IMG/VR virus record: IMGVR_UViG_3300009514_000017
Coordinates: 11,791 to 75,790 of that record
Length of the DNA stretch: 64,000 bases
Strand: one strand, 5' to 3'
DNA from: a virus
Under the pieces are notes generated by a model. That model was not told where the DNA came from. It saw only the letters and a program-made list of their open reading frames with translations, and did no database searches. A program made the translations under genes and the position numbers. Shown here one piece after another: positions 43,007 through 64,000 of the stretch. Within the stretch, counting starts at the first letter, position 1; every line of letters starts with the position of its first letter.

Positions 43007-43240
43007 ATGGAGACTGTATCTCTCCACTCTTTTGCAGATGAGCTTCAGCAGATCTTGGAGAAGGATGCGGGACTCAAGGATTTTTTCATCCGAAAGGTTG
43101 CACCTGAGTCCAGCAAGAGGTTAGCTAGAACAAAAGTCGTATCAAACATCACTGGAGCTTTTCCTAGATCAGTCAAGCCGGTTAAACCGATAGACATGGG
43201 TGATACGTGGTTGGCAAAAGCTGGACTTCGACCTGCGTAG
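43007..43240 (+). CDS. Small basic protein with N-terminal SFADELQQILEKDA tag
   Basis: ATG at 43007 directly after the upstream TGA; carries the recurring motif. Confidence 0.6.
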   Translation: METVSLHSFADELQQILEKDAGLKDFFIRKVAPESSKRLARTKVVSNITGAFPRSVKPVKPIDMGDTWLAKAGLRPA

Positions 43241-43247
43241 GTAGTCT

Positions 43248-44180
43248 ATGAACCAGCCAGAGATCGAATTCTACAAGCGCTTGACTGAATTCGTTCCGAC
43301 TGCTCCTACTGAAGGCAGTCCTGTAGAGGAACGTTTCAAGGCTGTTCCAGATTACAAGATCCCAGTTAGCCCTAAGAACCTCTTCACTCATCAGGAAATC
43401 CACCCCATCGTTCTAGACCTATCTCTACTAAAGGCTTTCGGTGAGGAGTGGTACTACTGGGAAGTTCCGACTCTGTGGAAGTCCATCCACGACGAGTTCA
43501 AGTCCAAGGTGTCGGAGTCGAACAGAGCCAAGATCAACGCTGTAAGAACTGCAAGAATCACCACCCTACCGTGGGATAGCTGGCACGTTTTCGAGAATGT
43601 GGTACTAGCACTAGATGGATTTGTTCCACGGTGGGACATCCTACAGAAAGTAGATCTTGAGTCACTGTTCGTAGGAGTGGACATCCTGGAGCAGATCAGA
43701 CCTGAGGACTATTCGGAAGATGTCCGCAACTACATAGCTGCTGTCTTCTTGGATGATGATGTCTTCTTCACCCCTCCACCACTAGAGTTTTCACAGGCAG
43801 AAGTCTCGCAGCCCTATTACCTTTGCAAGGATTGTGGAAATGAGGAGTGGGCGCTACATCACGATGGCATCTGCTCCGTGTGCTCTGGTAGATACGATCC
43901 AGAGAACGGTTTGTCGATGCGGCCTTCCCAAGAAGCCATAGACAAGAAGCTCGGGCAGAACACCGTGTTACGATACAAGTTCGACCCTGGGCCTGAGCAG
44001 AGAGTCTGGGATCTAGTGGCCAGGTCCAAGAATGAGCAGTCGATTTTGAAGGTGGCTGGTCCAGCAGAGATAGGTGTGTCAAAGCTGCTGGATGCTAGAG
44101 ACCTCATGAACATCAGGCGCAGACAGCTCAAGAACCAGCTGACCGCTCTCAAGTCTTGGCTGAACTCGAGGTCTTCATGA
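43248..44180 (+). CDS. Hypothetical protein with CxxC..CxxC insert
   Basis: 310 aa; CKDC..CSVC. Confidence 0.6.
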   Translation: MNQPEIEFYKRLTEFVPTAPTEGSPVEERFKAVPDYKIPVSPKNLFTHQEIHPIVLDLSLLKAFGEEWYYWEVPTLWKSIHDEFKSKVSESNRAKINAVRTARITTLPWDSWHVFENVVLALDGFVPRWDILQKVDLESLFVGVDILEQIRPEDYSEDVRNYIAAVFLDDDVFFTPPPLEFSQAEVSQPYYLCKDCGNEEWALHHDGICSVCSGRYDPENGLSMRPSQEAIDKKLGQNTVLRYKFDPGPEQRVWDLVARSKNEQSILKVAGPAEIGVSKLLDARDLMNIRRRQLKNQLTALKSWLNSRSS

Positions 44181-44713
44181 TTGATTATTCAGCCTTCACT
44201 GATGAGCTGGAGAAGATTGGTGGAGTAGGAACCTTTCTTCAGAAACAGATCAAAAACGTTGGCAACACGATTAATGACTTTGCTAATCCCATAAAATCCA
44301 TGAAGGCTGGATGGGAGTCTGGTGCTGCCGGTAGATCGTTTGGTGGATGGGGCGGTAAGCTACTGACAGACAAAAATAAGCCGTCGTTCTGGCGTCATCT
44401 ACCTGTAGGACCCAAGGCTCAGATAACAGGCTTTACTGCACTTGAAGCTCCAGGCGCCCTCGCCAAAGAAGACCCTAGTGGCGAGGGGCGATCTCGTCTG
44501 CGTCGTGTATCTGGAACCCTTGGTGGGACCGGAGGTTTTTTGGTCGGTGGTAGACATGGACTCCTTGGCTCTCTGGTTGGTGGAGCCATTGGCCAGAAGA
44601 TGTTGAGTGGGTCTGTAGGATTAGGGGAGAGCACTGTAGAAGCTGTCAAGCAACTCAAACGTCAGAGAAAGTTTAATGCATTGAATACAACGCAGACCCC
44701 CGTGGGGCCGTAA
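44177..44713 (+). CDS. Gly-rich (glycine-zipper) protein with N-terminal AFTDELEKIG tag
   Basis: ATGA overlap at 44177; GTLGGTGGFLVGG..GLLGSLVGGAIG. Confidence 0.65.
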   Translation: MIDYSAFTDELEKIGGVGTFLQKQIKNVGNTINDFANPIKSMKAGWESGAAGRSFGGWGGKLLTDKNKPSFWRHLPVGPKAQITGFTALEAPGALAKEDPSGEGRSRLRRVSGTLGGTGGFLVGGRHGLLGSLVGGAIGQKMLSGSVGLGESTVEAVKQLKRQRKFNALNTTQTPVGP

Positions 44714-46719
44714 TGTCGTCAGATCTAGACTTCTACAACTCCCTGTCTGGCGTATCCAGATTCTCTGGTGTTCGTGGTCGGCTCTCGCAAGGTGGGTCGT
44801 TTCCAGCTCGCTATCCATCCCCATTCTTCGATCTCGGTCATACTTGGCTACCACACTCGATTGGCAAGCTGCATCAGTGGTGCCGCTACTATTACCTAGT
44901 CAATCCACTGATCAATGCCGTCATTCACAAGATGGCGGAATATCCAATCACTGAGATTGTCGTCAACGAGGTAAACAAGACCACCAAGGAAAAGTGGGAG
45001 CACATTCTAGGACAGCATCTTCGTATTCGTGCGTTCCAGGTAGAAGCTGGCCTCGACTACTTCACTTACGGGATCTGCATTATCACGATGCACTTCCCAT
45101 TCGAGAAGTATCTCGCTTGCACGAACTGCAAGTTCGAGGACAAGGCCAGCAACCTCAAGTACAAGTGGCGCAACCTGAACTACATCCTTCGTTGTCCCAA
45201 GTGTGACCACGAGGGGCCAACCAAGGTTCGAGACCAGTACCTGAAGGACTTCCGTCGAATCAGGTTGATGAGATGGAATCCAGAGTACGTCTACATAGAG
45301 CAGGGGTTTGCTGGCGCGGAGCCCATCTACACTTTTATGGTTCCGAAGGGTCTCAAAAACGAGATCATGATGGGCAAGACCCGCGTTCTCAACACGGTTC
45401 CAGATATCTACATTGAAGCGTTGAAGCGCAACAGGAATATAGCGTTCGCTCCAGAGAACATGTTCGTGATGAAGCGGCCAATCATCTCTCAGAGAGAGAC
45501 GGGTTGGGGTATGCCTCTCATCCTTCCTGTTCTGAAGGACGCTTTCTACCTTCAGATCTTGCGCAAGTCTCAGGAAGCTATAGCTTCTGAGCATATCGTT
45601 CCACTTCGTGTTCTGTTCCCTCAGGCAGGAAGCGGAACGAGCGATCCATATACCTCAATCCCAATTGAGTCTTGGAGGTCCCGTATAGAGCGTGAGATCA
45701 CCAAGTGGAAGTACGACCCAAACTACATTCCTGTTCTTCCTCTACCTATTGGGTCTCAGTCCATTGGTGGAGATCAGAAAGCTTTGAATCTGCACCAGGA
45801 GATCAGCCTCTGGTCTGAGCAGATCGTTGCAGGAATGGGAGTGCCGAGAGAGTTCGTGTTCGGCGGCCTTACATTCTCTGGCTCCAACGTGTCGATGAGG
45901 ATGTTGGAGAACGCTTTCATCAACTACCGTATCGACCAAGACAACCTCTTGAATGAGTTCATCATCAGGAGAGTTGCAGACTACATGGGTTGGCCATCGG
46001 TGCGCGTATCTATGCGCAAGTTCAAGATGGCAGACGATCTACAGAGGATGAGCTTCCAGTTCCAGCTCAACCAGGCAATGAAGATCTCAGACGAGTCTCT
46101 GTTGAAGGAATGCGACCACGATCCAGTAGTTGAGAAGGAGCGCAAGGAGCGTGAGGTTGGAGCTCAACTCGAGTACCAGCGCAAGATGCAGCTATCACAG
46201 GCTGAGACTCAGGGTCAGATGTTGCTTGTTCAGTCTCGCTATCAGGCTGCTGCCCAAAGCATGTTGGCTCCGGCTATGCCTGTGCAGCCTGGAGCTCAAC
46301 AGGGTGCAGCACAGCTCGGTGGCCAGCAGGGTGAGATGGTTTCAGGAGACCAACTTGGAATTCCTGGAGTTCCTGGTGACGTTTCTGTCTCTCCAGAGAA
46401 TGCTCAACAGCAGCCAGTTGAAGGAGTTCCGACTGAAGCTCAGAGTCCTCTCAGCATGAACACACAGGGTGCTGGGATAGACATTAGGTACGTTGCTAAG
46501 AGGGTACTGGCTCAAATCCAGAAGCTGTATGCCCAAGATCCACAGCAGGCGAACATGAAGCTTGAGGAGATCAGGGCATCCAATCCACAGCTATATAGTC
46601 TTCTCATCCAGATGGCTAACAGTAGGGTTGGCTCTCAAACCGATCCACTAAATCCGGTTCAGTCTCCGCAGCCACAGGTGAAGCCACCTCGTAGCCCCAA
46701 GTCTCCAGCGGCTGCGTGA
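44713..46719 (+). CDS. Portal protein (putative) with Zn-ribbon insertion
   Basis: CRYYYLVNPLINAVIHKMAEYP, GWGMPLILP, IVAGMGVPREFVFGG..SGSNVS and a Q/P-rich tail give a portal-like layout. CTNC..CPKC insert. Confidence 0.7.
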   Translation: MSSDLDFYNSLSGVSRFSGVRGRLSQGGSFPARYPSPFFDLGHTWLPHSIGKLHQWCRYYYLVNPLINAVIHKMAEYPITEIVVNEVNKTTKEKWEHILGQHLRIRAFQVEAGLDYFTYGICIITMHFPFEKYLACTNCKFEDKASNLKYKWRNLNYILRCPKCDHEGPTKVRDQYLKDFRRIRLMRWNPEYVYIEQGFAGAEPIYTFMVPKGLKNEIMMGKTRVLNTVPDIYIEALKRNRNIAFAPENMFVMKRPIISQRETGWGMPLILPVLKDAFYLQILRKSQEAIASEHIVPLRVLFPQAGSGTSDPYTSIPIESWRSRIEREITKWKYDPNYIPVLPLPIGSQSIGGDQKALNLHQEISLWSEQIVAGMGVPREFVFGGLTFSGSNVSMRMLENAFINYRIDQDNLLNEFIIRRVADYMGWPSVRVSMRKFKMADDLQRMSFQFQLNQAMKISDESLLKECDHDPVVEKERKEREVGAQLEYQRKMQLSQAETQGQMLLVQSRYQAAAQSMLAPAMPVQPGAQQGAAQLGGQQGEMVSGDQLGIPGVPGDVSVSPENAQQQPVEGVPTEAQSPLSMNTQGAGIDIRYVAKRVLAQIQKLYAQDPQQANMKLEEIRASNPQLYSLLIQMANSRVGSQTDPLNPVQSPQPQVKPPRSPKSPAAA

Positions 46720-46721
46720 GG

Positions 46722-46952
46722 TCATCTGCCATCTTCAGGAAACCAATCCTGAAATTGGTTTACTATTTCCCAAGTCTCTCTCAAAGTCTCACTAGCTCGG
46801 GAGAATGCTTGTTGTACTTCTTCCGGCGCCTTCTGAAACGACATCTTCATCCACAGATCGTATTGAGTCATCCATAGCGCTCGGATGTCTTCGCAATGGC
46901 TTTCTATGTCGTCGCGATAAACTGGTTCTAGATACGGGTTTATACGCGCCAT
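46722..46952 (-). CDS. Hypothetical protein
   Basis: 76-aa ORF, TGATG-coupled to the upstream gene. Confidence 0.5.
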   Translation of the reverse strand: MARINPYLEPVYRDDIESHCEDIRALWMTQYDLWMKMSFQKAPEEVQQAFSRASETLRETWEIVNQFQDWFPEDGR

Positions 46953-47401
46953 CAGCCATCATCTCCCAACAGTTTCTCTGAGCAGTCGTAGCACACGGAG
47001 TCAATCTCACATCCACATGCCTGACACACTCCGTTGGTCATCTCTTCTAGCTCAGTCATGAATCCATCGTCGACGTTACTGATGATAAACTCACACACGC
47101 ATTCCGGATGTAGGTTGACTCTACCCTCGGTTTCATTTGCGTAGTCGACGATAAGATCCCCAGTCTTCTTGTTTCTGAATACTGCACCATGAAACAACTC
47201 GACTGCTTCCTCACCTAATTCAATCTCATTGCTACACCACTGACACTTCATCATCGCCGCTTGTGGAGGTGGTGTAGGTTGGATCTGCTGCTGGTATGAT
47301 TGTTGGTAACTCGGCTGATACGACTGCTGTGGCGGCTGCGGCTGTTGGCTTCCGTACTGTAGGAAGTTAGGGTCGAAGGTAGGCCATTGAGATTTGCTCA
47401 T
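46952..47401 (-). CDS. Q/P-rich N-terminus + Cys/His metal-binding domains
   Basis: CQWC..HPEC..CQAC..CYDC. ATG at 47401 overlaps the upstream TGA. Confidence 0.6.
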   Translation of the reverse strand: MSKSQWPTFDPNFLQYGSQQPQPPQQSYQPSYQQSYQQQIQPTPPPQAAMMKCQWCSNEIELGEEAVELFHGAVFRNKKTGDLIVDYANETEGRVNLHPECVCEFIISNVDDGFMTELEEMTNGVCQACGCEIDSVCYDCSEKLLGDDG

Positions 47402-47688: not shown

Positions 47689-47702
47689 TTGGTTTGCCTG
47701 TC

Positions 47703-47737
47703 AATTAAAGGAAGGACGGGATCTACCCGTCCTTCCT
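47703..47737 (-). terminator. Intrinsic terminator-like hairpin
   Basis: Perfect 12-bp stem AGGAAGGACGGG/CCCGTCCTTCCT (47709-37) followed by TTAATT on the minus strand. Confidence 0.6.
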
Positions 47738-47747
47738 GCGGGACTCC

Positions 47748-47795: not shown

Positions 47796-47828
47796 TGACG
47801 CCTCCTTTCGGGGACGTTATGTCCCTCT

Positions 47829-47843: not shown

Positions 47844-47858
47844 AAAATCGCTGTCTTT

Positions 47859-47891: not shown

Positions 47892-47966
47892 CAGCATCGT
47901 CCAGGCTCGAAAACCCAAGGCGCTGGGTAGAGCCTCTCTTCACCGAGCGCGTCTTAGGTGAGGTAC

Positions 47967-50900
47967 ATGGCACGCATATCCCCGACTGAGGTCTTTGATG
48001 GCCTCAAGAAAAACACAGTCGAGTCCATCAAGTCCTACTTCCCGTTTGAAGAGGGAGGTAAGAGGCTTGAGGTCGAAGACGTTTGGGTCGATGACAAACT
48101 GGACGTCAACGATATTCAATCACAACAGAAGGCCAAGCTCGATGACAAGACCTGGGGTGTAAAGGTCAAAGCCAAGATGAAGCTCACCGATATCAAGACC
48201 GGCAAGGTCTTGGATCGAGCTACGTCCAGTGTGGCCACTCTGCCGAAGATGACGAATCGCTTCGGCTACATCGTTGGTGGAAACGAGTATCAGGTAGACA
48301 ATCTCTTCAGATTGAAGAGCGGTGTCTACACCCGAATCCAGAACAACGGCGAGTTGGAGTCTGAATTCAACTTGGCCAAGAGCCCTGTGGGTGGTCGCGG
48401 GTTCTCGGTCCACTTCGATCCAGAACGCAAGAAATTCTCGCTTCTCTACAAGACAGCCAAGATTCCACTCCTCCCAATCCTCAAGAGCATGGGGATGGCA
48501 GACGATGACATCAAGAAGAACTGGGGCAAGGAGATCTACGAGGCGAACTCCCCCAAGTCTCAGAAGGCTTATGACCAAGCACTGTTGGATTTCCAGACCA
48601 AGACCAGTGGAGATGCCACGTTCAAAGGGTCGAAAGATCCTAAGGAGTACATCAAGGAGTTCTTTCATCAGTCTGAGTTGCGACCAGACACGACCTCCAT
48701 CACTCTAGGAAAGCCATTCGATAGAGTGAGCCACGAGGTTCTATCGATTGCAGCCAACAAGGTTCTCGGTGTGTCTCGAGGAACCAACGAGCCTGACGAC
48801 CGTGACAGTCTGGCGTTCAAGGAAATCACCTCCACCGAGGACTTCATTCCAGAGAAGATCGAGAGGTCTGCTAGGGCTATCCGGGGCAAGCTTCGTCAGA
48901 CTATGGGGAGGAAAGACAAGATCAAGGAGATTATCCCTTCCGGTGAAAGAGGTCTGTTTGGTCAGCCAGTACATGACTTCTTTACCAAGGGCGGGTCTGT
49001 TGCTGAGTTGTCTGACCAGACCAACCCATTGCAGATCTTGTCTGCACATCGCAAGACTACCTTGATGTCAGAGCAGTTCGGCGGCATGAAGTCCGAACAC
49101 TCTCTCACCCCAGAGATGAAGGTGGTCAACCCTAGCCACATAGGGTTCCTTGACGTGATGAAGACTCCCGAAAGCAGTCGCTCGGGTATCACCGTCAATC
49201 TATCGCTACAGGCACAGAAGAGAGGTAAGGAGCTCGAGGCTCCTGTCTTTGATCTGAAGTCAAAGAAGTTGAAGTACGTCTCAGCCCACGAGTTTCATGG
49301 ACGCAATTCTGTATTGCCAGACCAAGTCAAATGGGTTGATGGCAAGCCGGTGCCTATAGCCAGCCGTGTCAAGATGAAGGTCGTTGGCGGGGCGATAGAA
49401 GAGCGTCCGTGGACCGACGCAGATTCTGTAATGCCAACTGCCAAGGGCATGTTTGACTTCACCTCGAACATGATTCCTTTCTTGCCGTCAGACCAGGGCA
49501 ACCGTGTGTCGATGGCAGATAAGCAGATGGAGCAGGCTATTAGCCTGAAGCATCGAGAAGCTCCACTCGTTCAGACCAAGACCGAGAAGGAAAAGACGTT
49601 CGACAAGGTGTTGGGAAACTTTGCCTCTCAGAGATCACCCGTTGCCGGGAAAGTAACCGCAGTTAGAGGTAATCAGGTTACGGTCAAGGACGCGAAGAAC
49701 AAGAGTCATAATGTCCACTTGTACGATCACTTCCCTACCAATGACCCAAAGGGAATGTTCCATTCCGAATCGTCTGTGAAGGTCGGAGACCATGTCTCAA
49801 AAGGCGATACTCTGGCGGATACCAACTTCACAAAGGGTGGAAACCTAGCACTTGGAACCAACCTCCGAGTTGGTTACGTGCCATTCAAGGGCTACAACTT
49901 CGAAGACGGTGTCGTCGTATCTGAGACGGCATCTAAGAAGTTGACCTCCGAACATCTGTACAAAGAGTCACTATCTGTGTCCCCAAACGATGGGGATCGT
50001 ATTGACAAGAATAGATTTGTTGCGGTGGCCAAGCGCAAGATCGCTCAGATGCAGCCAGGAGAGCTGGACGCCATTGGTAGTGATGGTGTGGTCCGCGTTG
50101 GTTCACATGTTCAACCAGGTCAGGTGTTGGTTACTGCGGTTGGTAAAAGCAACCTGGACAAGAGAGATCATGCTCTAGGTTCATTCGGTCGTAGAGCCAT
50201 GTCATTGGAGAAGGACAAGTCTCTGGTTTGGAACCACTCCAGTCCTGGAAAGGTGGTTCGTGTAGTCAAGAGCCCTAATGGTAAAGAGATAAAGGTTCAC
50301 GTCAAGACTGAGGAACCTTTGGTCGTCGGCGATAAGGTGGCCGGACGCCACGGTAACAAGGGCATCGTCACTAAGATTCTTCCCGATGACGAGATGCCAT
50401 TTACTGTTGATTCTAAGACCAAGGAGAAGAGGCCCATACACGTCCTTCTCAACCCGACCGGCGTGCCTTGCTACGACGATAAGACTGAATTCTTGACCGA
50501 CACTGGATGGGTTCAAGCTCCCAAGATCCATGAAGAGCATCGGTTCGCTACGATCAACCCGAAAACTCTAACTCTTGAATTCCAAGATCCAGAGGAGGTT
50601 TACCACATACCTTACACGGGTAAGATGTACAGGATTCAGAACCAGCAGCTTGACCTACTAGTTACTCCTCACCACAAGCAGTTCACTGCCAAGAGAGGGA
50701 ACCAGAAGCTGTATGGAGCGTTGGATTTAGATGACCAGGAGCTTCCGTCTCTGTTTTCATTGGATGAAGCACAGGAAATCATAGGCCAACCAAGGCGGTA
50801 TCTAAAGGCTGCTAAGTGGAAAGGTGATAGCGCGGCTTTCTACTATATAGAGCCTGGAACTTACGCTGGAGTAGGGCCTAAGCCTACTCATGGAATGAAC

Positions 50901-53900: not shown

Positions 53901-56846
53901 AGGGCTATCAATATTGCGTCTAGCTACGGAGATGTAGATACAGCTTGGAAGTCCTCGCTTCTATCCATCTTCAAGGACGCTCCAACAGTTACGAGATCTG
54001 AAGCTACTGAGGGCAAGTTGGGTAACTCCACTGGCTCTACTCGTTTTACAGTCAGCTGTGTTGCTGCGGCTAAGTTCATTGCAAAAACCTTAGGACGGTC
54101 AGCGCAGAAGAAGCATCTCCCAACCTTTGCTACGGCGGCTCCGAAGAGTTTCATCCTTGGACTCCTAGGTGGGCTTTGGGATACCGATGGTTCGATGTCT
54201 TGGTCAAAAGCTAAGGCTAAGAAACAGTTCATGTGCTCGTATTCATCTACAAGCATTCGACTTGTCCAAGAGATTCAGTATCTCCTAAGGATGTTGGGGG
54301 TCTCTGCATCTATTACCCCAACAGAAACTCCAGCAGGTGGACCAGCTTGGGTGTTGACGGTGTCAACTGTCGACCTTTACCGAATAGGTGGGTTTCCAGT
54401 TCACCATTCGGATAAGAAGGCACATCAGACTGAGTTCTTGAACGGTGCCAAGCCAGATGATCGGATGGCGTACAGCCGTTACCGTCTGGTTCCTACCCCT
54501 TCCGCTCTAGCCTCAGAGATGAGGTCTGTCATTGGCTCAAAAGAAGATCGAAGCTTGTACATCACGCTCTCAAAGGCCATTGAGCGTCAGTACATGTCGA
54601 AGAACATGGCGGAGAAGCTTCTCGATATCGACTGCTCGCATCCTCTGTTCAACAAGTGGAAGTCTATAGTTCAGATGCCTGGGGTTCACTTCGAGAGAGT
54701 TGATAGCGTTGAGGTCACGAATATTAGAGAGGATGGGTACGACCTAACGGTTCCTGATCATGAGACTTTCATGTCCATCGACGGAATTGTTCTCTCCAAC
54801 ACGATGGCTGCAACCATTCCAATGACTCAGGAGGCGGTAGCCGAAGCACGGAAGATGTTCCCATCGAAACACCTTTTCTCCTCCACGAACTTTGGTGTGA
54901 TGCACACCCCAGGTCAGGAAGCCATCATCGGCTTGAACCTTATGACACGTTGGGGAAAGAAAACTAATAAGAAATTCAGGGACATAGCCTCTGCAAAGAA
55001 GGCTTATAAAGGTGGGTCTATAGAGCTGACCGACGTCATCGAGCTGACTGGGTCCAAGGGTCCAACCACTGTTGGCAGGTTGATGATTGCTGAGAAGATG
55101 CCTCATGGTTTCTCTGGCAACCACGGCATCATGCACGACTCCAAGTTCGAGTTCACCAAGAAGTCCATCAAGCAAACGGCTACCAAGATTGCCAATGAGA
55201 AGCGTGGTCAGTTCGCCAATGCGATGGACAACTTGAAAGACCTAGGAAATGAGTTCTCGTACTCTCAGGGGTTCTCGTTTGGGCTGAAAGATCTGGAGAC
55301 TCTACCAAGGAGGGATTCCATCCTTGCAGCGGCAGACAAGAAGGCGGCGGTCGTCAGGAAGACAGTCAAAGATCACAAGAAGCAGGAGTTGATGCTGGCC
55401 AAGATCTATGAGGACGCCACCAATCAGATGGAGAAACACGCCGTCGAACACTTCGTCAAGGGTGGAAGAAAGAACCGATTGATGTCCATGGTGTACTCCG
55501 GCTCTCGTGGTTCGGAGTCACAGCTAAGGCAGATGATCGCGGCTCCTATGATGATGATCGACCACAGTGGAAAGGTGATCACCAACCCAGCAAGGAAGAG
55601 TTATTCCGAAGGTCTGGATATCGGTGACTATTGGAAGACCCAGCACGGAGCCAGGAAGGGGACGTTGGATAGGGCAGTAGGAACTCAGGAGCCCGGGGCG
55701 CTTACCAAGGACATCCTCAACTCAACTATGAACATCCATGTAGTCTCCAAGGACTGCATGACTACACAAGGTGTTCATATGGCTCTAGAGTCTAGTGACG
55801 GCAGTACACCTCCAGACATCTTCGACCGATACACCTCTGTTCCGTACACATTGAAGTCAGGAAAGAAGGTTCCAGCAGGCTCAGTCATCACTCCGGCGCT
55901 GGTCGATCAGTTGAAGGAATCCAAGATCAACAAGATCTTGTGCAGGTCGCCACTGAAGTGCCAGCACGGAAAAGGAATCTGCTCGAAGTGCTTTGGTTTG
56001 AACGAGAACGGGGAGCTACATTCTGTTGGAACCAACATCGGTGTGCTGGCTGGTCAGGCATTGGGTGAGCCTGTTACTCAGATGGCGATGGATGCCTTCC
56101 ATTCGGGTGGTGTTGCTGGAGCAGCAGGTGCTCAAAAGGTTGACAAGTTCACCAGACTGAAGCAGCTCTTGAACGTGCATCAGACGTTGAAGGACTCAGC
56201 CACCCTGGCTCGAGTGTCTGGAACTATTACGTCCGTCAAGAAGGATGCAGCAGGTGGTCTAGATATTTTCATTGGTAAGGAGCGCCATTACGTTCCAGCC
56301 AAGCTAGTGAATGATGGCATCAAGGTTGGAACCAAGATTATCAGAGGTCAGTCACTTTCCCACCCGTCATCTCCAGTCAACCCACACCACCTACTTGGCG
56401 TGACTGGAGATATGAGTAGAGTCCAGAACTACATCACTGAAGAGTTGGCTGAGGGACCTTACAAGGGGAGGCTGCGTCGTCGTAACGTTGAGGTAGCAGT
56501 TCGTGGCCTGACGAATGTGGCTACAGTGACTGGCAGTGGAACCAACAGCCCTTGGCAACCTGGTGATAAGGTTCCGCTGTCGGTTATTGAGATGCACAAC
56601 AGGAAGTTGAAGAAGAAGGACAAGCCTGTGGAGTTCTCTCCACAGTTGGTTGGCTCTCAGCAGGTTCCTCTCACCTCTACGGATTGGATGGCTCGCTTGA
56701 ACTATCAGAGGTTGCCATCAACAATCATGCAGGCGGCATCGCAGGGATGGAAGTCTGATATTCACGGCCAGCATCCGATCCCTGGCATAGTGTACGGTGC
56801 AGAGTTTGGTAAACCACCCAAGGGCAAGCTGCCGGGGTCGTACTGA
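47967..56846 (+). CDS. rpoBC: Fused beta-beta' DNA-directed RNA polymerase precursor with two inteins
   Basis: Beta motifs: DQTNPL, GYNFEDG, GDKVAGRHGNKG, NPTGVP/TRINVGQ, GFGQLE. Beta' motifs: PVLPP, KRDPALH, NADFDGD, GARKG, CQHGKGICSKCFG, GEPVTQ. All in one frame. ATG 47967 preferred over GTG 47958. Confidence 0.95.
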   Translation: MARISPTEVFDGLKKNTVESIKSYFPFEEGGKRLEVEDVWVDDKLDVNDIQSQQKAKLDDKTWGVKVKAKMKLTDIKTGKVLDRATSSVATLPKMTNRFGYIVGGNEYQVDNLFRLKSGVYTRIQNNGELESEFNLAKSPVGGRGFSVHFDPERKKFSLLYKTAKIPLLPILKSMGMADDDIKKNWGKEIYEANSPKSQKAYDQALLDFQTKTSGDATFKGSKDPKEYIKEFFHQSELRPDTTSITLGKPFDRVSHEVLSIAANKVLGVSRGTNEPDDRDSLAFKEITSTEDFIPEKIERSARAIRGKLRQTMGRKDKIKEIIPSGERGLFGQPVHDFFTKGGSVAELSDQTNPLQILSAHRKTTLMSEQFGGMKSEHSLTPEMKVVNPSHIGFLDVMKTPESSRSGITVNLSLQAQKRGKELEAPVFDLKSKKLKYVSAHEFHGRNSVLPDQVKWVDGKPVPIASRVKMKVVGGAIEERPWTDADSVMPTAKGMFDFTSNMIPFLPSDQGNRVSMADKQMEQAISLKHREAPLVQTKTEKEKTFDKVLGNFASQRSPVAGKVTAVRGNQVTVKDAKNKSHNVHLYDHFPTNDPKGMFHSESSVKVGDHVSKGDTLADTNFTKGGNLALGTNLRVGYVPFKGYNFEDGVVVSETASKKLTSEHLYKESLSVSPNDGDRIDKNRFVAVAKRKIAQMQPGELDAIGSDGVVRVGSHVQPGQVLVTAVGKSNLDKRDHALGSFGRRAMSLEKDKSLVWNHSSPGKVVRVVKSPNGKEIKVHVKTEEPLVVGDKVAGRHGNKGIVTKILPDDEMPFTVDSKTKEKRPIHVLLNPTGVPCYDDKTEFLTDTGWVQAPKIHEEHRFATINPKTLTLEFQDPEEVYHIPYTGKMYRIQNQQLDLLVTPHHKQFTAKRGNQKLYGALDLDDQELPSLFSLDEAQEIIGQPRRYLKAAKWKGDSAAFYYIEPGTYAGVGPKPTHGMNIPASIWAEFMGWFLSEGSTYFNKANYSYVTEISQDKNVNPENYDRIRTVMEFFGLTLEETDSGIRVKHKGLFERLALLGKAREKYIPREILDMEPRHLRLFLDAAVRGDGSETWDAETGHYGNKKYWTASKRLADGIQEVAAKLGIAANIKRESRRGDDACYYISLSGSRLAPWVNWSSTTKSNQVEEWEDYDGVVHCATVPNGTLLVRRNGKAVFSGNTRINVGQVLETAAGKIAEKTGKPFIVDNFGDPKSNNRKMVADALKAHGLTDEEDVYDPSNVKKPIGSVLVGPQHILKLQHQVEKKLTSRGGSTTAGGAGLKFDSDRQPQKGGEHGSQGFGQLELYSLLAHGAKHNIREFATYKSDEQNEQFWAQLQSGREPPPPKVPFAYNKFEALLKGLGVNVEKHGTEIQLLPSTDRQTIAAAGGASGELKKANLTLQSKTLREEKGGLFDKMVTGGKDGNNWSYIKLTDPMPNPVFVGSGNLPGPIPALLGMKIKDVEDVMKGKTKLHGKTGGEAIKEALSKINVTAELAKTKGRLHGLTGSELDRANKRFKYLSVLKDKNLRPEDAYMMSAVPVLPPKFRPVQELPTGDLSVHPLNGMYKNIAILNQKLVQAKADKNLDDDRTELAADLYDKMKALQSVGGSSAFDLDSPNSKRKLKGIMETIAGTNAPKEGYFQDRLVKKRLGMSMRSTITPEPRLSLDEVGIPRNAAMEMYKTYVQAELVKHGISRPRADLMIRQNDPVAHKALETVIGDRPVILKRDPALHKFSVMGFKPKIVEGKSIQIHPLVTGGFNADFDGDQQLGSVLVNVSEEIYNSDLDFWKPRRCKVSARFEEVVGFEFNGYFAVCNLEDFPRSELVGTKDHIEFWTVPEGVKVAAVDEASGKVTLTKVSHWSLHLARKIEIVNLGSGRQIITDDDERAVYGLDASSLEWCRRRPKDAKLQFVPVVDESPRLESFLSEVPLPSSPRLKATATLDESFGYFMGAMVGDGWASFAEGTPRAINIASSYGDVDTAWKSSLLSIFKDAPTVTRSEATEGKLGNSTGSTRFTVSCVAAAKFIAKTLGRSAQKKHLPTFATAAPKSFILGLLGGLWDTDGSMSWSKAKAKKQFMCSYSSTSIRLVQEIQYLLRMLGVSASITPTETPAGGPAWVLTVSTVDLYRIGGFPVHHSDKKAHQTEFLNGAKPDDRMAYSRYRLVPTPSALASEMRSVIGSKEDRSLYITLSKAIERQYMSKNMAEKLLDIDCSHPLFNKWKSIVQMPGVHFERVDSVEVTNIREDGYDLTVPDHETFMSIDGIVLSNTMAATIPMTQEAVAEARKMFPSKHLFSSTNFGVMHTPGQEAIIGLNLMTRWGKKTNKKFRDIASAKKAYKGGSIELTDVIELTGSKGPTTVGRLMIAEKMPHGFSGNHGIMHDSKFEFTKKSIKQTATKIANEKRGQFANAMDNLKDLGNEFSYSQGFSFGLKDLETLPRRDSILAAADKKAAVVRKTVKDHKKQELMLAKIYEDATNQMEKHAVEHFVKGGRKNRLMSMVYSGSRGSESQLRQMIAAPMMMIDHSGKVITNPARKSYSEGLDIGDYWKTQHGARKGTLDRAVGTQEPGALTKDILNSTMNIHVVSKDCMTTQGVHMALESSDGSTPPDIFDRYTSVPYTLKSGKKVPAGSVITPALVDQLKESKINKILCRSPLKCQHGKGICSKCFGLNENGELHSVGTNIGVLAGQALGEPVTQMAMDAFHSGGVAGAAGAQKVDKFTRLKQLLNVHQTLKDSATLARVSGTITSVKKDAAGGLDIFIGKERHYVPAKLVNDGIKVGTKIIRGQSLSHPSSPVNPHHLLGVTGDMSRVQNYITEELAEGPYKGRLRRRNVEVAVRGLTNVATVTGSGTNSPWQPGDKVPLSVIEMHNRKLKKKDKPVEFSPQLVGSQQVPLTSTDWMARLNYQRLPSTIMQAASQGWKSDIHGQHPIPGIVYGAEFGKPPKGKLPGSY
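50469..51557 (+). mobile_element. Intein 1 (363 aa, class 1, LAGLIDADG homing endonuclease) in the beta region
   Basis: GVP|CYDDKTEFLT..VTPHH..FMGWFLSEGS..AVRGDGS..VHCATVPNG..FSGN|TRINVGQ. Removal restores the conserved NPxGVPSRMNxGQ motif. Confidence 0.9.
53304..54800 (+). mobile_element. Intein 2 (499 aa, atypical Gln1, LAGLIDADG) directly after catalytic NADFDGD
   Basis: NADFDGD|QQLG..FMGAMVGDG..LWDTDGS..GYDLTVPDHETF..IVLSN|TMAATIP. Removal restores a NADFDGD-xMA-like active-site loop. Confidence 0.85.
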
Positions 56847-57999: not shown

Positions 58000-60018
58000 A
58001 TGAACCTGTTCCTCGATACCCCACAGACCGAGAAGAGTGCTGCGTTCGTGGCTCGCCTCTCAGAACAGCCAGAGAACTGGGGTCCTGAAATCCACAGCGA
58101 AATACTACGACAGGTTCCATACCTGTCTGAGTATGACCTGAACGTCCACCTGGATAAGGTGAATCCACAGCGTGGTTATGGCTTCGGCTATGTGGATGTC
58201 ACGAATAGGACGACCCGACCGCTGACGGAACAGACAGACGGGGTCGATGCCCCACACATCAAGCTGCCAGTCATCGTCGAGGAAAGGTCGTTGAAGCCTT
58301 TCACTGTGTTCCTTGATGGAACGGATGTCCTACCTCTCACGGAGGAACGTCTGAGAGAGGCGCTATTCAATCCGGCGACCTTTGATCTGGTAGACAATCA
58401 GCCAAAGGATCAGGGGCTGATTGATAGCCTTACCCCACCAGCAAGAGGAGGTGAGATCGGTAAGGGTAAGACCTCTTCAGCCAAAACCGTCTCTGCGGAG
58501 GATAGAGCATCTATCCTCCTCGATATCGCTCCGACCATCTCTGAGTCCGATGCTAGGGACTTTCTGAGGAAGGTGGCGTCAGATCCATCCATCGCCGCAG
58601 GGTTTAGGAGATCTGGCCTGACCCCTAGACTGGAAGAGGTTTTCGTCAAGACGAAGAGGGCGTCGGCTGATGAAAGACTCGAGTCGTTGCTGGATGGAAT
58701 CCTTCCAACAGTTACAACCCTACACAAGTTGCCTGGCGGAAACTTCCTCGTGAAACAGGCTGCCACCAACGCTTTCGTCGATGGTCAGGGCGCTCAGGGA
58801 CAGGTTGTACCACAGCAGCAGGTTGGACAGGCAATCGGGCAGGAACAAGCAGCAGCCATTCAGCCCGGAGATACTGTCACGGCAACTGCCAATCCTGTAG
58901 AACAGCCTGCTCCAGAGCCAGTCGACAACTCGAAGGTTGTTGAAGAGTTTGGCGAGTACAAGATCAGGGATTCCCTAGGAAACGAGATTTTGGGTTGGGT
59001 GTTTCCACAGACTCTAGCTTGGGATGGGCAGTTTACTCCAACTGAGGTTGCGCTGTTCACGAACGGCTCTTCTTACGCCGTCAAGGATGGGGGAATCGTA
59101 GGTGAGTTGGTTGGTAAGGGAACCAACTTGCCAAAGTCTGACGATCCCAGAGGAGAAGGCACCTTCTATTCCATCGAGCATGGAAACGCGATAGCAACCG
59201 CACCAGTTACCATCAGCTCGACAGTGGCTGGAGTCGATGGCCAGCACAAGCTCATGGGCACTGACCTGTTTGGTACTCCTGTTTCTGTCAGCATTGTCGC
59301 TGGACTCAAGACGCCGATGTCGGTTGGAGAGGGGGAGTTCTCTCTCCCCGATTCATGGAAGTTCATGCGGCTGAACAATCAGACGGAGTTGGAAGCAAAC
59401 CCGGAGATGGAGGGAGGAGCTCCACCACCAGCAGCAGCGGCAGAAAAGAAGCTGGCTTCGGTGAACAACTCCGCCGAGTTGTTCTGGAACGGGTCGTACA
59501 ACATCAAGGGTGGCTGTGGTCTACACAAGATTGCTTCCTCTTACAGGCACGATCTTGACTCAGTAGGAGCTGAGTTTGTGCTTGGCCTACTTGGCGTCGA
59601 TGGTGGTAGAGCGCAGAGCTTGGTGAAGGAAGCTAGGAAGAAGGGATGCGTCAAGCTATCAGGACTGAAGACCATCAAGACTGCTGGGGAACGCTTCAGT
59701 GAGTCAGTCAAGACGGCGTCAGCCATTCTCTCGAGCCTTCCCAATCTGAAGAGAGACTTGGTGAAGATTGCTGCGGAGATGGGTGATGAAAGTACGGCTG
59801 ACCATATCCTAGCTCTGAACTTCATCAACCCAGAGAACTTGGCCGAGTTCGTTGGTTACATTCCAGACCTGGATGCAACCAGCAAGAAGCTTGCTGAGAT
59901 GCATCTGTCGTCACAGGTTGGACAGAGAGATCTACCTGGTGACTCTATCAAGACAGCCATGGAGAACCTAGAAGACGTCATTCTCGGACTGAAGTCTATC
60001 CAGCATGCAGAGTCCTAA
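58000..60018 (+). CDS. Putative virion protein rich in K-x-A sites
   Basis: 672 aa containing KSAA, KVAS, KRAS, KQAA, KLAS, KIAS, KTAG, KTAS, KIAA, KLAE and KTAM. Confidence 0.55.
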   Translation: MNLFLDTPQTEKSAAFVARLSEQPENWGPEIHSEILRQVPYLSEYDLNVHLDKVNPQRGYGFGYVDVTNRTTRPLTEQTDGVDAPHIKLPVIVEERSLKPFTVFLDGTDVLPLTEERLREALFNPATFDLVDNQPKDQGLIDSLTPPARGGEIGKGKTSSAKTVSAEDRASILLDIAPTISESDARDFLRKVASDPSIAAGFRRSGLTPRLEEVFVKTKRASADERLESLLDGILPTVTTLHKLPGGNFLVKQAATNAFVDGQGAQGQVVPQQQVGQAIGQEQAAAIQPGDTVTATANPVEQPAPEPVDNSKVVEEFGEYKIRDSLGNEILGWVFPQTLAWDGQFTPTEVALFTNGSSYAVKDGGIVGELVGKGTNLPKSDDPRGEGTFYSIEHGNAIATAPVTISSTVAGVDGQHKLMGTDLFGTPVSVSIVAGLKTPMSVGEGEFSLPDSWKFMRLNNQTELEANPEMEGGAPPPAAAAEKKLASVNNSAELFWNGSYNIKGGCGLHKIASSYRHDLDSVGAEFVLGLLGVDGGRAQSLVKEARKKGCVKLSGLKTIKTAGERFSESVKTASAILSSLPNLKRDLVKIAAEMGDESTADHILALNFINPENLAEFVGYIPDLDATSKKLAEMHLSSQVGQRDLPGDSIKTAMENLEDVILGLKSIQHAES

Positions 60019-60041
60019 ACCTCCAACTCGTGAGCACTTGA

Positions 60042-60905
60042 GTGAAACATCCAGCTGAAAGATTCATCAAGTACCTGCTGCTCAAGACTCCTAACATCGA
60101 GTTCCACTCGATCAGGACCACCTTGATCGAGTGGCATTTTCTGTTGCCTCTGGAAGATGGAGAGCAGGCTCAGTACTTCAACTTTCTGAGAGCAGAGCTG
60201 GAACAGGGTAGGCCGCAGGACTTCGACCCATCCAACAGGGTTCACAGACCCTCTGTCAGATTCCTGCGACAGCATGGCATCTATGGACTGTTCTTCCCAA
60301 CATCATCTGTTGAAGAAGCCTGGGACATACTGGGTGACCCAGAGAAGAGAGCAACCGTTGAACAGTTCCTGTTGGCCAGGCTGAATCTCAAGCGTGACCT
60401 AGCCCACCTCAACAGACAGACAGGATGGAGATTGTCTTCTACTGGTGTGGAGGCATACCAGAAGTTCTTCTGGGACGTTAAGGCACTCTCGTTCGATGAA
60501 TGGGGAAGATTTTTGTATGGCAGAACCATGCTGTACGAGAGGGCATTGACCCTTCTTCAAGCGCCGAAGAAGCTCGCCTACTTCCATATGAGATTCGAGC
60601 AGGAGAATGACTCGAAGTCTATGATCTTGCGTGCCCAGCAGATCGCCTACCACACCCTTGAAGAAGTATCGATGCAGCCTGGTGTTGGACCGCAGAAGGT
60701 CAAGGCTATCGGTATCCTGGCTAAGTCGGTTCTGGATTGCCATGAAGCCTTGATGACCAGTGATCTCGCTCTTCGTGAAGTCATCGACAAGTTCAAGCAG
60801 TTTCAGATGGAGCGTGACAACTCTCGACCAAAGTCGATTCATGAACTAGCTGCTGCTGGCAACTACTCCGGAAGCGGGGTAGATGATGATGAGGTGGTTC
60901 ACTAA
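60042..60905 (+). CDS. Hypothetical helical protein
   Basis: 287-aa ORF in operon orientation. Confidence 0.6.
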   Translation: MKHPAERFIKYLLLKTPNIEFHSIRTTLIEWHFLLPLEDGEQAQYFNFLRAELEQGRPQDFDPSNRVHRPSVRFLRQHGIYGLFFPTSSVEEAWDILGDPEKRATVEQFLLARLNLKRDLAHLNRQTGWRLSSTGVEAYQKFFWDVKALSFDEWGRFLYGRTMLYERALTLLQAPKKLAYFHMRFEQENDSKSMILRAQQIAYHTLEEVSMQPGVGPQKVKAIGILAKSVLDCHEALMTSDLALREVIDKFKQFQMERDNSRPKSIHELAAAGNYSGSGVDDDEVVH

Positions 60906-61345
60906 TGGGTGCAATATCTAAAGGTATTGCTTTCGGAGCATTGGCTGGAGCAGGGACTGGACTGACTGGTGGACCTGGTGGAAGAGATAATAATGCAAGG
61001 GTAAAGAAGGTTTTGAGAAATGCTGTTGGAGGAGCATTTATCGGTGGAGCGATAGGTGGGGGTGGTTCACATGCGTTAAAAGCTGGGCGTAAAGCATACA
61101 GACAGGAATCTGCTAAGGCCGCAGACAAGATGGAAAAGAGTTTACAGAGAGTCTCAGACAAAACTCTTGCTGGTGCAGAAGCATTGCCAGGTAAGGTAGT
61201 AGAACGAGCCAAAGGATCTATTGCAGACAGGTTTAGGAGAATCCCTCTTCTAGGAAGACTGGTTCCGAAAGCTAAGACGGCAGGGGTGGATTACACTGCA
61301 TTCACCAATGAGCTGTATGAGATTGTAGGAAGGGGGTACCGCTGA
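60905..61345 (+). CDS. Gly-zipper basic protein with C-terminal KTAG-VDYTAFTNELYEI tag
   Basis: GIAFGALAGAGTG and AVGGAFIGGAIGGG segments; TAATG coupling. Confidence 0.6.
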   Translation: MGAISKGIAFGALAGAGTGLTGGPGGRDNNARVKKVLRNAVGGAFIGGAIGGGGSHALKAGRKAYRQESAKAADKMEKSLQRVSDKTLAGAEALPGKVVERAKGSIADRFRRIPLLGRLVPKAKTAGVDYTAFTNELYEIVGRGYR

Positions 61346-61380
61346 GTGATTTCGCGCCAGGACTTCCAAGCAAGGGGAAC

Positions 61381-62763
61381 ATGGGCGACTTCTCTCGATT
61401 CAGAGAGGGAGACACCTTGGACCTGGTGGTCCAGGAACATCGCGCGGACAGGGCGGGGAAACACTTCGACGTTCGTATAGGCACGAAGGACACCGGACTT
61501 CTTTCATGGGCTACTCGAAAGGGAATCCCAGGACCGAGTGGTAAGGTTGCCTTGTTTCAGCAACCAGTTCATCGGCATGAGTATGGTCAGTTCGAGGGTG
61601 AGATAGCTTCCGGGTACGGAAAGGGAACTGTCAGGAAACACGATTCGGGAAAGCTTCTGGTCACAAAGGTGGACAAAGGTTCAATCCATCTGACGCGATC
61701 AGACAAGAGGTTTCCCGAGCGATTCGTCCTGGCAAAGCCGAGAGGGGACAACAAGCGTTGGTTGTTGATCAACTCTACTCCGACCGAGAAGGTGCCTTAC
61801 GACAAGATCAGGTATCGATCTGTGGCTCCCAAGGATGCCAAGAAGGTGTTGGACAACCTTCAGCCCGGTTCCTCTGTGCAAGCCAAGATAGATGGCGCAG
61901 CCGCGTTGACCAAGCTTTTGAAGGGCAGGGCAGAGGTTGTCTCTTACAGGGTGTCGAAAGAGACTGGTAGACCTATTGTCCACACGGAGAGGATGTTCAA
62001 GGGGAGGCCAACCATCTCGATCCCGAAGAAGTACGTCGGCTCAGTTCTGCGCGGAGAACTCTATGGGACCAAGGGGGGTAAGGTCATTCCGCCACAGGAG
62101 CTTGGTGGTATTCTCAACTCTTCCGTGGACAAATCTATCAGGCAGCAGGTAGAGCGTGGGGTAGAGCTCAAGAAGTCACTGTTCGACATCCAGCAGGTTG
62201 GTGCGGAGTCGACCAGAGCAATGGATTACCAGAGCAGGAGTAAGGTTCTCGAGGACATCATCCGGCATCTTCCTGAGGACAGGTTCGAGCTGTCTGAAGG
62301 AGTGTTGACTCCAAAAGACGCCAACGCTCTTCTCAAGAAAGTACTTTCAGGAAAGCATCCACTCACTCGTGAGGGTGTGGTAATCCACCCACCGATGGGT
62401 AAGCCAACCAAGATCAAGGCGCAACAGGAGCACGATGTCTATGTCACCGGAACTTTCCCAGGAAAAGGACGACTCCGAGACTCTGTTGGAGGAGTCACTT
62501 TTTCAACCTCTCCAGGTGGCAAGACGGTTGGCAAGATCGGAACAGGATTTTCGGATGCTCTTCGTAGTGAACTCGCTAGGAGTCCATCCGAGTACATCGG
62601 AAGAATCGCTCGTGTACGCAGCCAGGAGAGACTACCTTCAGGAGCTTTGAGAGCACCATCTCTCATAGCGCTTCACGAAGACTACCCGATGAAGAAGTCA
62701 GCACATCTTCTAAACGCTGCTAAGCTTCTGGGATTCGTAGACGAGCTACAGAAGGAGATTTGA
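61381..62763 (+). CDS. LigD-type 3'-phosphoesterase fused to ATP-dependent DNA ligase
   Basis: PE domain: VVQEH..HFDVR..SWA..H..Y..FEG.I..GYG.G.V. Ligase motifs: KIDG, LRGE, FDI, EGVV, KIK, GTGF, LRAP. Confidence 0.85.
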   Translation: MGDFSRFREGDTLDLVVQEHRADRAGKHFDVRIGTKDTGLLSWATRKGIPGPSGKVALFQQPVHRHEYGQFEGEIASGYGKGTVRKHDSGKLLVTKVDKGSIHLTRSDKRFPERFVLAKPRGDNKRWLLINSTPTEKVPYDKIRYRSVAPKDAKKVLDNLQPGSSVQAKIDGAAALTKLLKGRAEVVSYRVSKETGRPIVHTERMFKGRPTISIPKKYVGSVLRGELYGTKGGKVIPPQELGGILNSSVDKSIRQQVERGVELKKSLFDIQQVGAESTRAMDYQSRSKVLEDIIRHLPEDRFELSEGVLTPKDANALLKKVLSGKHPLTREGVVIHPPMGKPTKIKAQQEHDVYVTGTFPGKGRLRDSVGGVTFSTSPGGKTVGKIGTGFSDALRSELARSPSEYIGRIARVRSQERLPSGALRAPSLIALHEDYPMKKSAHLLNAAKLLGFVDELQKEI

Positions 62764-62764
62764 A

Positions 62765-63223
62765 ATGGTCTGGTACAAGCAGTTTGAAACAGGGGTTGAG
62801 ACCATCGAGGACAAGGCTCTTCTCGACGAGCTAGATCGCGATAGCAAGGTGGTGACGGACGAGGAAGAGTTCTCGACGACCGCCAAGATCATAGAGCCCA
62901 TTCAGTTTCAACCAGTCAAAGCACCCGGTCACTACGAAGCAGAGACTGCTGTTCGAGGACAGGATGTCATCTTCCACATCTGGCCTTGGGGGTATCACCA
63001 GGCTGTGGCGGAAGAGGCCAGACCACCAAGCTTCAGGCCCAAGTTCCAGGATTGGATTTCAACTGCCTTCCTGTCTGAGTATCCCGACGCAAACATTTTC
63101 ATCGATTACGACGCAGACATGGGATCGTTCTTCGTCAAGATACACGGTGTTGGAGTCAGTCAGTTCTGGATGAAGCGTGCCATCCAGTGTCTTGAGAACC
63201 TCTACAACCTACTGGCTAATTGA
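62765..63223 (+). CDS. Hypothetical protein
   Basis: 152-aa ORF with AAGGAG upstream. Confidence 0.6.
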   Translation: MVWYKQFETGVETIEDKALLDELDRDSKVVTDEEEFSTTAKIIEPIQFQPVKAPGHYEAETAVRGQDVIFHIWPWGYHQAVAEEARPPSFRPKFQDWISTAFLSEYPDANIFIDYDADMGSFFVKIHGVGVSQFWMKRAIQCLENLYNLLAN

Positions 63224-63224
63224 T

Positions 63225-63956
63225 ATGATATCTTCCTCCTTTGTTGATGAGCTAGAAAAGATTGCTATTTCTATCAATCAGATTCGAGCAGCATCTAAAA
63301 GAATAGGGAAGACAATTACTCCAGAGAAGGGGTCGATCATAGATGCGTTTGGTGCCATTGCAACCCCTACCAAAGCTCAGGTCGGAAAGAAGAATCTTTC
63401 TTCAGCTAGATCTATTGCTCGTATGCAGTCTAAGATCCTGCCGAAGGAGGTCACGTATTCGATGAAGAAGGCTTTGAAACCTATCTATTCGGACAAGTCC
63501 AAGAGAGGAAAGATTTATCTATCCGATGATATTGGCGCGAGGCTCTCTCCTTCAGCTAGCCCTAAAACCCAGAAGCGGGTAGGGAGTCTAACTAAGATTC
63601 ATGAGAGGCAGGAGACAAAGGTCAAGATGAAGCCGGGTAGCCTTCATCTATCTCCAAAGGTGATGATGGATGAGATGAACATGGCCAACAACATCACTGG
63701 CCACGGTTCGAAGGTTCTATCTAAGGAACTTCAAGGGCTTCGTAAGGCTGAATTTGGTCATCTTCGTAAACAGATTGTAAAGGGTGTGAAAGATAAGCGA
63801 GCCCTTCAGTATACGAAACCTGGAAGAAAGATTCCGAAGGCGATGAAGAAGCATCTGCTGAAAAAGAGGATGCGAATGACGCCCAGGGAAGCTATAAATA
63901 TCATGACGGAGCAAGGGAAGGTTCTTCAAGAACGTCACATGAAGGCAGCTAGATGA
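63225..63956 (+). CDS. Very basic protein with N-terminal SFVDELEKIA tag
   Basis: ATG at 63225 after the upstream TGA; K/R-rich. Confidence 0.65.
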   Translation: MISSSFVDELEKIAISINQIRAASKRIGKTITPEKGSIIDAFGAIATPTKAQVGKKNLSSARSIARMQSKILPKEVTYSMKKALKPIYSDKSKRGKIYLSDDIGARLSPSASPKTQKRVGSLTKIHERQETKVKMKPGSLHLSPKVMMDEMNMANNITGHGSKVLSKELQGLRKAEFGHLRKQIVKGVKDKRALQYTKPGRKIPKAMKKHLLKKRMRMTPREAINIMTEQGKVLQERHMKAAR

Positions 63957-63971
63957 TATTTCAGGATTAAC

Positions 63972-64000
63972 ATGATCCCTATATCTTTCGTAGATGAGCT
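63972..64000 (+). CDS. Start of a truncated gene beginning MIPISFVDEL
   Basis: ATG at 63972 with AGGA upstream; carries the recurring tag. Confidence 0.5.

Follow-up and report, generated by a model that had tools for sequence, protein, structure and literature searches.

Why do proteins that have no sequence in common carry the same short peptide at one of their ends? The question is raised by a 64,000-nucleotide stretch of viral DNA (the window; bases 11791–75790 of the linear, 75,790-bp viral contig IMGVR_UViG_3300009514_000017 in IMG/VR), in which six plus-strand open reading frames (ORFs) code for the peptide F-x-[DN]-E-L-x-K-I or a variant of it, here called the tag. We find that the tag recurs in all of the complete genomes examined from the clade to which the contig belongs, that it is mostly N-terminal and almost always on basic proteins, and that its last residues are a motif enriched in proteins of the head module. 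On balance we take it to be a docking tag by which proteins would be loaded into the phage head, comparable in principle to the capsid-targeting sequence (CTS) of phage T4.

Copies of the tag in the window and the contig

All seven peptides quoted in the initial annotation of the window were recovered where it had placed them. They lie in the following ORFs, listed with the isoelectric point (pI) of most products and the E-value given by a profile hidden Markov model (HMM) of the tag.

43007–43240, plus strand: 77-residue protein, pI 9.8; N-terminal METVSLHSFADELQQIL, tag core SFADELQQIL with S at 43028 (43028–43057) and F as residue 9; HMM E 2e-6
44177–44713, plus strand: 178-residue Gly/Ala-rich protein, pI 10.2; N-terminal MIDYSAFTDELEKIGG, tag IDYSAFTDELEKIG at 44180, core 44192–44221; HMM E 2e-7
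60905–61345, plus strand: 146-residue Gly-zipper-like protein, pI 10.6; C-terminal tag VDYTAFTNELYEI at 61286, 14 residues before the stop; HMM E 1.6e-4
61381–62763, plus strand: 460-residue ligase, pI 10.0; C-terminal tag GFVDELQKEI, 62731–62760; HMM E 7e-3
63225–63956, plus strand: 243-residue protein, pI 10.6; N-terminal MISSSFVDELEKIA, tag SFVDELEKIA at 63237, core 63237–63266; HMM E 1.6e-5
63969–64000, plus strand: ORF broken off by the contig end; tag start SFVDEL at 63984, in MIPISFVDEL, read from the sequence
30720–30905, minus strand: 61-residue zinc-ribbon protein (zinc-ribbon Pfam matches); EFDDELVKQA, 30855–30884; HMM E about 1

The last of these had been put forward as a weaker copy. 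It was dropped: its E-value is not significant, its gene stands in the replication block of the minus strand, and in a complete relative (G001) the corresponding segment lies inside the protein. The 43007–43240 and 63225–63956 proteins have no Pfam or PHROG family. The 460-residue enzyme consists of a LigD-type 3'-phosphoesterase and an ATP-dependent DNA ligase (Pfam LigD_N, DNA_ligase_A_M and OB_2; phrog_114). Upstream of the window the same contig holds two further good N-terminal copies, MINLDSFVDELTKIS (L079:1133) and VTRFEAFADELSKIS (L079:1369). The significant copies of the contig are all on the structural strand, and the HMM found none in the proteins of its replication block.

The tagged genes that begin at 43007, 44177, 63225 and 63969 have no clear Shine–Dalgarno sequence upstream; in two of them TGAT stands right before the ATG, an arrangement of stop–start coupling.

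Distribution of the tag in the clade

The contig is about 40% complete according to CheckV and comes from a phage of about 200 kb; circularity was not found, and joining the end to the start yields a stop. Relatives were reached through alignment of the portal protein, which served as the anchor for locating the clade. There are 1583 portal homologs at E ≤ 1e-10, many of them on contigs of 130–210 kb, and the complete relatives in IMG/VR measure 193–210 kb, with terminal repeats in most. Among the genomes of the clade the portals are 42–66% identical. Among phages in culture, Salmonella phage Arash, for which our search found no literature, and Vibrio phage D69 come nearest; they have only the portal and the RNA polymerase (RNAP) in common with the clade, at ~33% identity.

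The expression F.[DN]EL..[IL] matches the ORFs of the contig six times, whereas 2000 shuffles of the residues give 0.07 matches on average and never more than 3. The HMM profile, built from 50 copies, has 7 matches in the contig and 10, 7, 2, 6 and 8 in five complete relatives (G001–G005), making 40 over the six genomes, and none in the reversed-sequence controls. Three more complete genomes have 5–8 matches each. The tag is present in 8/8 complete genomes of the clade, at 2–13 copies per genome; the whole genomes of Arash and D69 have no match. An N-terminal position is the rule: 37 of the 40 copies in the six genomes are N-terminal, and the only two at a C-terminus are both from this window. 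In the portal loci, 42 of 42 copies are on the strand of the portal gene.

Codons of the tag copies differ synonymously, from which it follows that the constraint is on the peptide and not on the DNA, as had been supposed from the window alone. The same variation speaks against an RNA-level explanation, which was rejected; the fold of 43000–43080 is unremarkable (z −1.8).

Anatomy of the tag

The consensus of 82 distinct clade copies is M-N-x-x-T-L-x-A-F-x-D-E-L-E-K-I-A. It is numbered from the phenylalanine, so that M is at −8, T at −4, L at −3, A at −1 and F at 0, followed by x-D-E-L-E-K-I-A with its last alanine at 8. Each of F, D, E, L, K and I occurs in 68–80 of the 82 copies. The distance from the Met to F is exactly 8 codons in 39 of them, and F is usually residue 9. 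The spacing is that of a possible amphipathic helix, in which L−3, F0, L4 and I7 would form a hydrophobic seam and D2, E3 and E5 an acidic face. A K-x-A/G site had been placed between the tag and the body of the protein; this site is in fact part of the tag, whose conserved end it forms (K6-I7-A8).

Carrier proteins

The carriers give no BLAST match to one another, nor to their syntenic counterparts in other genomes. The majority have no family at all, and those with families are mutually unrelated. In the relatives they include a 748-residue SNF2 helicase, a 459-residue protein with MazG and a P-loop NTPase, an NlpC/P60-type amidase and a C39 peptidase, which bears out the initial view of the tag as a portable terminal module. 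Its corollary, that the carriers share nothing else, does not stand: a pI of 9.3–11.6 is found in 39/40 of them, versus 24–31% of all called ORFs, and the carriers of the contig fall between 9.8 and 11.6. IPII and IPIII of T4 are likewise basic. Many carriers have Gly/Ala/Leu-rich, weakly hydrophobic segments directly behind the tag.

A degenerate copy is found upstream of the window on a sigma-70-type factor (L079:2222–3094; phrog_351, 1.8e-12), which lies among the tagged genes and starts AFDEIMEKLA. Its orthologs in G001–G005 start A-[FLI]-[DEQ]-W-[VL]-[LF]-x-K-[IL]-A-A-A, conserved in four of the five inspected (the G003 start was not resolved). The spacing F0, phi4, K6, I7, A8 of the tag is kept and D2-E3 is replaced; the match is not significant by the tag HMM.

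Copies at the C-terminus

The body of the ligase ends at a conserved LHEDYP, to which a tail of ~25 residues is appended that closes with GFVDELQKEI. Of its five closest orthologs (57–58% identity), three, namely P0243, P0245 and P0246, end in G-[FL]-[VL]-D-E-L-x-x-I-x. As the tail is kept in these three, the C-terminal copy is maintained, and the earlier proposal that the tag can be used at either terminus gains support. K6 is present in 1/5 C-terminal tags as opposed to 76/82 N-terminal ones (Fisher 4e-4), and this difference suggests that the tag may have two parts, a docking core F-x-D-E-L-x-x-I and a K-I-A part that would be needed at N-termini only.

In the second C-terminal copy of the window, that of the 60905–61345 protein (VDYTAFTNELYEIV, 61286–61327), the motif is degenerate, with D2 replaced by N, K6 by E and A8 by V. 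No ortholog of this protein was found in G001 or G002. Its C-terminus and the N-terminus of the 44177–44713 protein share an extended (I/V)DY(S/T)AFT(D/N)EL, and both bodies are Gly-rich; from these sequences the two look like circular permutants, or like the result of a tag segment moved by recombination.

Homologs of the phosphoesterase–ligase (P0243–P0361) are common on large viral contigs and are often fused to NUDIX, SET, GNAT acetyltransferase or LysM domains. The frequency of these fusions suggests a modular end-healing enzyme family of big phages.

Gene neighbourhood and the head module

Two tagged genes of the window, 43007–43240 and 44177–44713, lie beside the portal gene in the following context.

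43248–44180, plus strand: 310-residue Cys4 protein, a context gene between the two tagged genes; 43–49% identity in relatives
44713–46719, plus strand: portal protein; weak phrog_16240, 33% identical to the protein annotated as portal in Salmonella phage Arash

They flank the conserved 310-residue gene immediately upstream of the portal gene, the 44177–44713 gene being directly upstream of the latter. The same layout is seen in the relatives compared, including a small tagged gene at the syntenic position of 43007–43240. Where the loci of relatives have tag matches, a tagged gene in most cases ends just before the portal gene, at ~9.2–9.5 kb of the loci. The AlphaFold2 model of the Cys4 protein has a mean pLDDT (predicted local distance difference test) score of 55 and is too poor to use.

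The capsid genes of the relatives were located by means of Arash gp226, and the searches gave 2376 capsid homologs. The order of genes is p347, p206, the head maturation protease, p259, p150, p461, the coiled-coil protein p124, p160 and the major capsid protein (MCP; phrog_2522, 3.6e-10), after which come three small genes and then four consecutive tagged genes, one of them that of the SNF2 helicase. The head maturation protease has 536 residues (phrog_18299, 1.3e-7) and is 47–53% identical in G002–G005. Pfam S77 and S78 prohead proteases had no match in the five genomes; the S77 control gave no signal anywhere, which makes this search uninformative.

Proteins encoded between the protease and MCP genes have the tag or something like it. 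In p150 the tag is internal when the protein is of the long form, whereas the short forms found in G002 and G005 have it at the N-terminus. The sole conserved block of p259 contains the tag-like SYVNELRSIEK. The coiled-coil protein p124 ends [AS]-F-A-A-x-L-A-S-L-D in four of the five genomes, with the F-x3-L-x2-L spacing of the tag. From its position and coiled-coil character only, we infer that p124 is the scaffold.

The p150 of G001 (L087:9610–10062) and its orthologs end in a second conserved motif, PPPVT, and in some genomes an extra N-terminal domain of 80 residues (MPEWIH..AIATQQ) precedes the tag. Two candidates were rejected in the course of this comparison: the product of L079:3835–4767, considered as a capsid protein, looks tail-like according to the ESM Atlas, and the N-terminus of the MCP, VLNDLFFEKIG, was not accepted as a homolog of the tag, since an N-arm of this kind is also present in Arash, which lacks the tag. 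A complex prediction of the G001 capsid protein with a 40-residue tagged N-terminus scored 0.00; controls were not run and it gives no verdict.

A candidate cleavage site at the end of the tag

Motifs of the form [DEQ]-K-[IVL]-[AGS], to which the E-K-I-A end of the tag belongs, were counted on defined proteins. In G001 the head-module proteins (3138 residues) have 12 of them and the portal, RNAP and tail proteins (13554 residues) have 8 (Fisher 5e-5). The same contrast is found on the homologous segments of G002–G005 (p 5e-4 to 2e-9). Over the five genomes motifs of the E-K-I-A type are enriched 6–10 times in the head-assembly proteins. The MCP has two copies of the motif within its N-terminal 27 residues. 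The enrichment fits a protease site without proving cleavage, and could instead mark a binding element.

Possible function of the tag

The reading that we hold, with rather modest confidence, to be the probable one is that the tag is a docking signal for loading proteins into the head, similar in kind to the T4 CTS, and is probably clipped by the head protease. It would be an analogue of the T4 sequence and not a homolog, because membership of the T4 CTS fails both on sequence and on the L/I-x-E rule. Portability, the N-terminal position, the basic cargo, the location of genes beside those for portal, protease and capsid, and a terminal motif common to the head propeptides all fit capsid targeting. 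During prohead assembly the tag would bind one conserved component of head assembly, for which the core of the scaffold and the MCP, on its inner face, are the best candidates. Varied basic proteins would thereby be loaded into the head, from small ones rich in Gly and Ala to enzymes like the phosphoesterase–ligase of the window. On N-terminal tags the terminal E-K-I-A would probably be cut by the head maturation protease of the clade. The basic proteins, rid of the label, would remain with the DNA for ejection into the host. C-terminal tags would keep the docking core F-x-D-E-L-x-x-I only. We infer the binding, packaging, cleavage and ejection of tagged proteins from this combination of features.

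A fuller version of head loading is possible, and we offer it tentatively. The tag would be a two-part, position-flexible address code, in which the core mimics the C-terminal capsid-binding peptide of the scaffold and a clip site, E-K-I-A, used at N-termini only, is shared with the propeptides of capsid and scaffold. With such a code the phage would have an exchangeable set of basic proteins to load into the head and inject: the phosphoesterase–ligase, the SNF2 helicase, MazG/NTPase, wall hydrolases and possibly the sigma factor.

Several observations weigh against loading into the head. The tagged clade is uncultured, and for the docking partner there are candidates only. The block with the capsid, protease and scaffold genes is not in this ~40% complete contig, and the evidence from the head module comes from the relatives. 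Neither the portal protein nor the RNAP has the tag. Some tagged genes of the relatives are in small minus-strand gene blocks away from the head genes (12.6–13.4 kb in G001). The clip motif was chosen with the sequences already in view, although its enrichment recurs in four other genomes, and neither the T4 cleavage motif (L/I-x-E) nor that of phiKZ (S/A/G-x-E) consistently follows the tag in the 82 copies. Finally, several carriers, namely the helicase, the ligase and the sigma factor, would be no less at home as cargo of a different hub or compartment inside the cell.

This last point leads to a different explanation, in which the tag docks on another hub of the phage: its own single-chain RNAP, the replisome, or an intracellular compartment that imports DNA-handling proteins. 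It would account for the carriers that act on DNA or in transcription (the phosphoesterase–ligase, the SNF2 helicase, MazG/NTPase and the sigma factor with its conserved degenerate tag), for the giant RNAP gene in the same gene block and for the tagged genes outside head modules. We nevertheless think it unlikely. Most carriers are small Gly/Ala-rich basic proteins without an enzymatic family, the NlpC/P60 and C39 cell-wall or peptide hydrolases are tagged too, and no significant copy occurs in the replication-block proteins of the contig; moreover, tag-like motifs are present in p150 and p259, encoded between the protease and capsid genes, and the end of the tag is common to the N-termini of scaffold and capsid. 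The peptide might also be a hetero-oligomerisation helix by which the small basic proteins, and some enzymes with them, associate into bundles, for example in a complex for ejection or for a membrane channel. Positions −3, 0, 4 and 7, all hydrophobic, have the a/d spacing of a coiled coil, the Gly/Ala/Leu-rich segments follow the tag in many carriers, and tagged genes stand in tandem clusters. A core of nine residues is short for a stable bundle, however, the same core closes a soluble enzyme at its C-terminal end, where the orthologs keep it too, and a tag that is near-invariant across genomes whose portals are 42–66% identical is better explained by one fixed receptor. This explanation, too, appears to us improbable.

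The presence of a C39 cysteine peptidase among the relatives brings to mind a leader of the double-glycine type, which such a peptidase would cut in the course of export or processing. There is a loose likeness to E-L-x-x-I-x-G-G leaders (one copy in the window reads ELEKIGG), and a Peptidase_C39 domain is encoded in two of the five complete relatives (G002:86749–87129 and G003:102857–103249). It was not found in G001, G004, G005 or this contig, although all of these are tagged, and it is without an attached ABC transporter. The start of the G003 protein itself, VTTPLFTAFSDEFQQIQ, is a degenerate tag in which F is residue 9, and the protein looks like a carrier rather than a processing enzyme. 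Gly is rare after the tag (14/82 copies at +9 and 9/82 at +10), and C-terminal copies cannot be leaders. The leader explanation is thus largely refuted by the distribution of the motif and we give it almost no weight.

Relation to known systems

In T4, diverse internal proteins share only the CTS, which takes them into the scaffolding core (PMC3012670), and the prohead protease removes propeptides of 10–20 residues (PMC5694885). The tag resembles the CTS of IPI–III and Alt in being a short N-terminal peptide that is the sole common part of diverse, fast-evolving proteins, in belonging to a phage that encodes a head maturation protease and in ending with a motif that is also present in the capsid and scaffold propeptides. 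The differences are as clear. The T4 CTS reads MKTYQEFIAE, and the clade consensus does not align to it; there is no L/I-x-E in the clade tag, where the candidate site is E-K-I-A; a gp21-type protease family was not detected in the clade (the S77 control gave no signal); and the clade tag is also used at C-termini and on large enzymes such as the ligase and SNF2 helicase. Nor is the clade T4-like; its links, only distant ones through portal and RNAP, are to the cultured Arash and D69.

Other systems share single aspects. Encapsulin cargo-loading peptides are likewise terminal peptides on unrelated enzymes, used at either end; they bind a pocket inside the HK97-fold shell of a nanocompartment that lacks a portal. 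The clade genomes, in contrast, are those of tailed phages with portal, scaffold-like, protease and tail proteins, the consensus is unrelated and capsid binding is only putative. Docking into the capsid protein by an amphipathic helix at a terminus, with an aromatic or hydrophobic key residue, is known from the C-terminal coat-binding helices of scaffolds (P22 gp8, herpesvirus pre-VP22a) and from the C-terminal targeting tail of the HK97 protease. The herpesvirus helix is released by the maturation protease, and the end of p124 in the clade has the F-x3-L-x2-L spacing of the tag. Those helices, however, are present on one or two assembly proteins, whereas the tag is on a dozen unrelated cargo proteins. 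Enzymes or anti-defence proteins are also loaded into heads for injection as MuF-domain polymorphic cargo and by the Dar system of phage P1, where targeting is achieved by whole domains or helper proteins and not, as here, by a linear motif of 9–17 residues.

We found no paper with "DELEKIA" in the searched literature. The motif, its clade, the C-terminal use and the apparent split between docking core and clip site are likewise not described there, so the claim that the motif is new holds for this literature, but the principle is already known from the T4 CTS.

If the tag does load the head, the capsid-targeting principle of T4 would have a second example with an unrelated sequence, and this in a clade that abounds in metagenomes. 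Since the tag is sharply defined and can be recognised by an HMM, the repertoire of injected proteins could be listed from sequence for hundreds of uncultured phages, and the list would point to candidate anti-defence or takeover proteins such as the helicase, the end-healing ligase, MazG and the sigma factor. A tag that functions at either end, with a docking core distinct from its clip site, would be new and could be of use for protein loading in laboratory phages; were the two-part code correct, a peptide of 9–17 residues would suffice to package any protein into these heads. Should the tag not be a packaging signal, a linear motif this close to invariant would still call for an explanation and must have some conserved partner to which it binds.

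Other features of the window

The plus strand runs from giant proteins of tail type through the portal gene (44713–46719) and the RNAP gene (47958–56846) to a block of small genes. The RNAP is a single-chain beta-beta' enzyme and bears an intein. On the minus strand, ~24.5–41.8 kb is occupied by the replication block, with DnaB, a helicase and DNA polymerase.

Downstream of the RNAP gene is a gene for a protein of 672–862 residues (58000–60018 in the window, 135596–138184 in G001). An ESM Atlas search with the 672-residue protein of the window gave no usable match. In the relatives it has 2–4 motifs of the type E-K-[IVL]-A, among them a conserved internal A-F-[VIL]-[EDQ]-K-[VI]-A, which reads AFVDGQGA in the window and so has been lost there. 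It may be a processed head protein.

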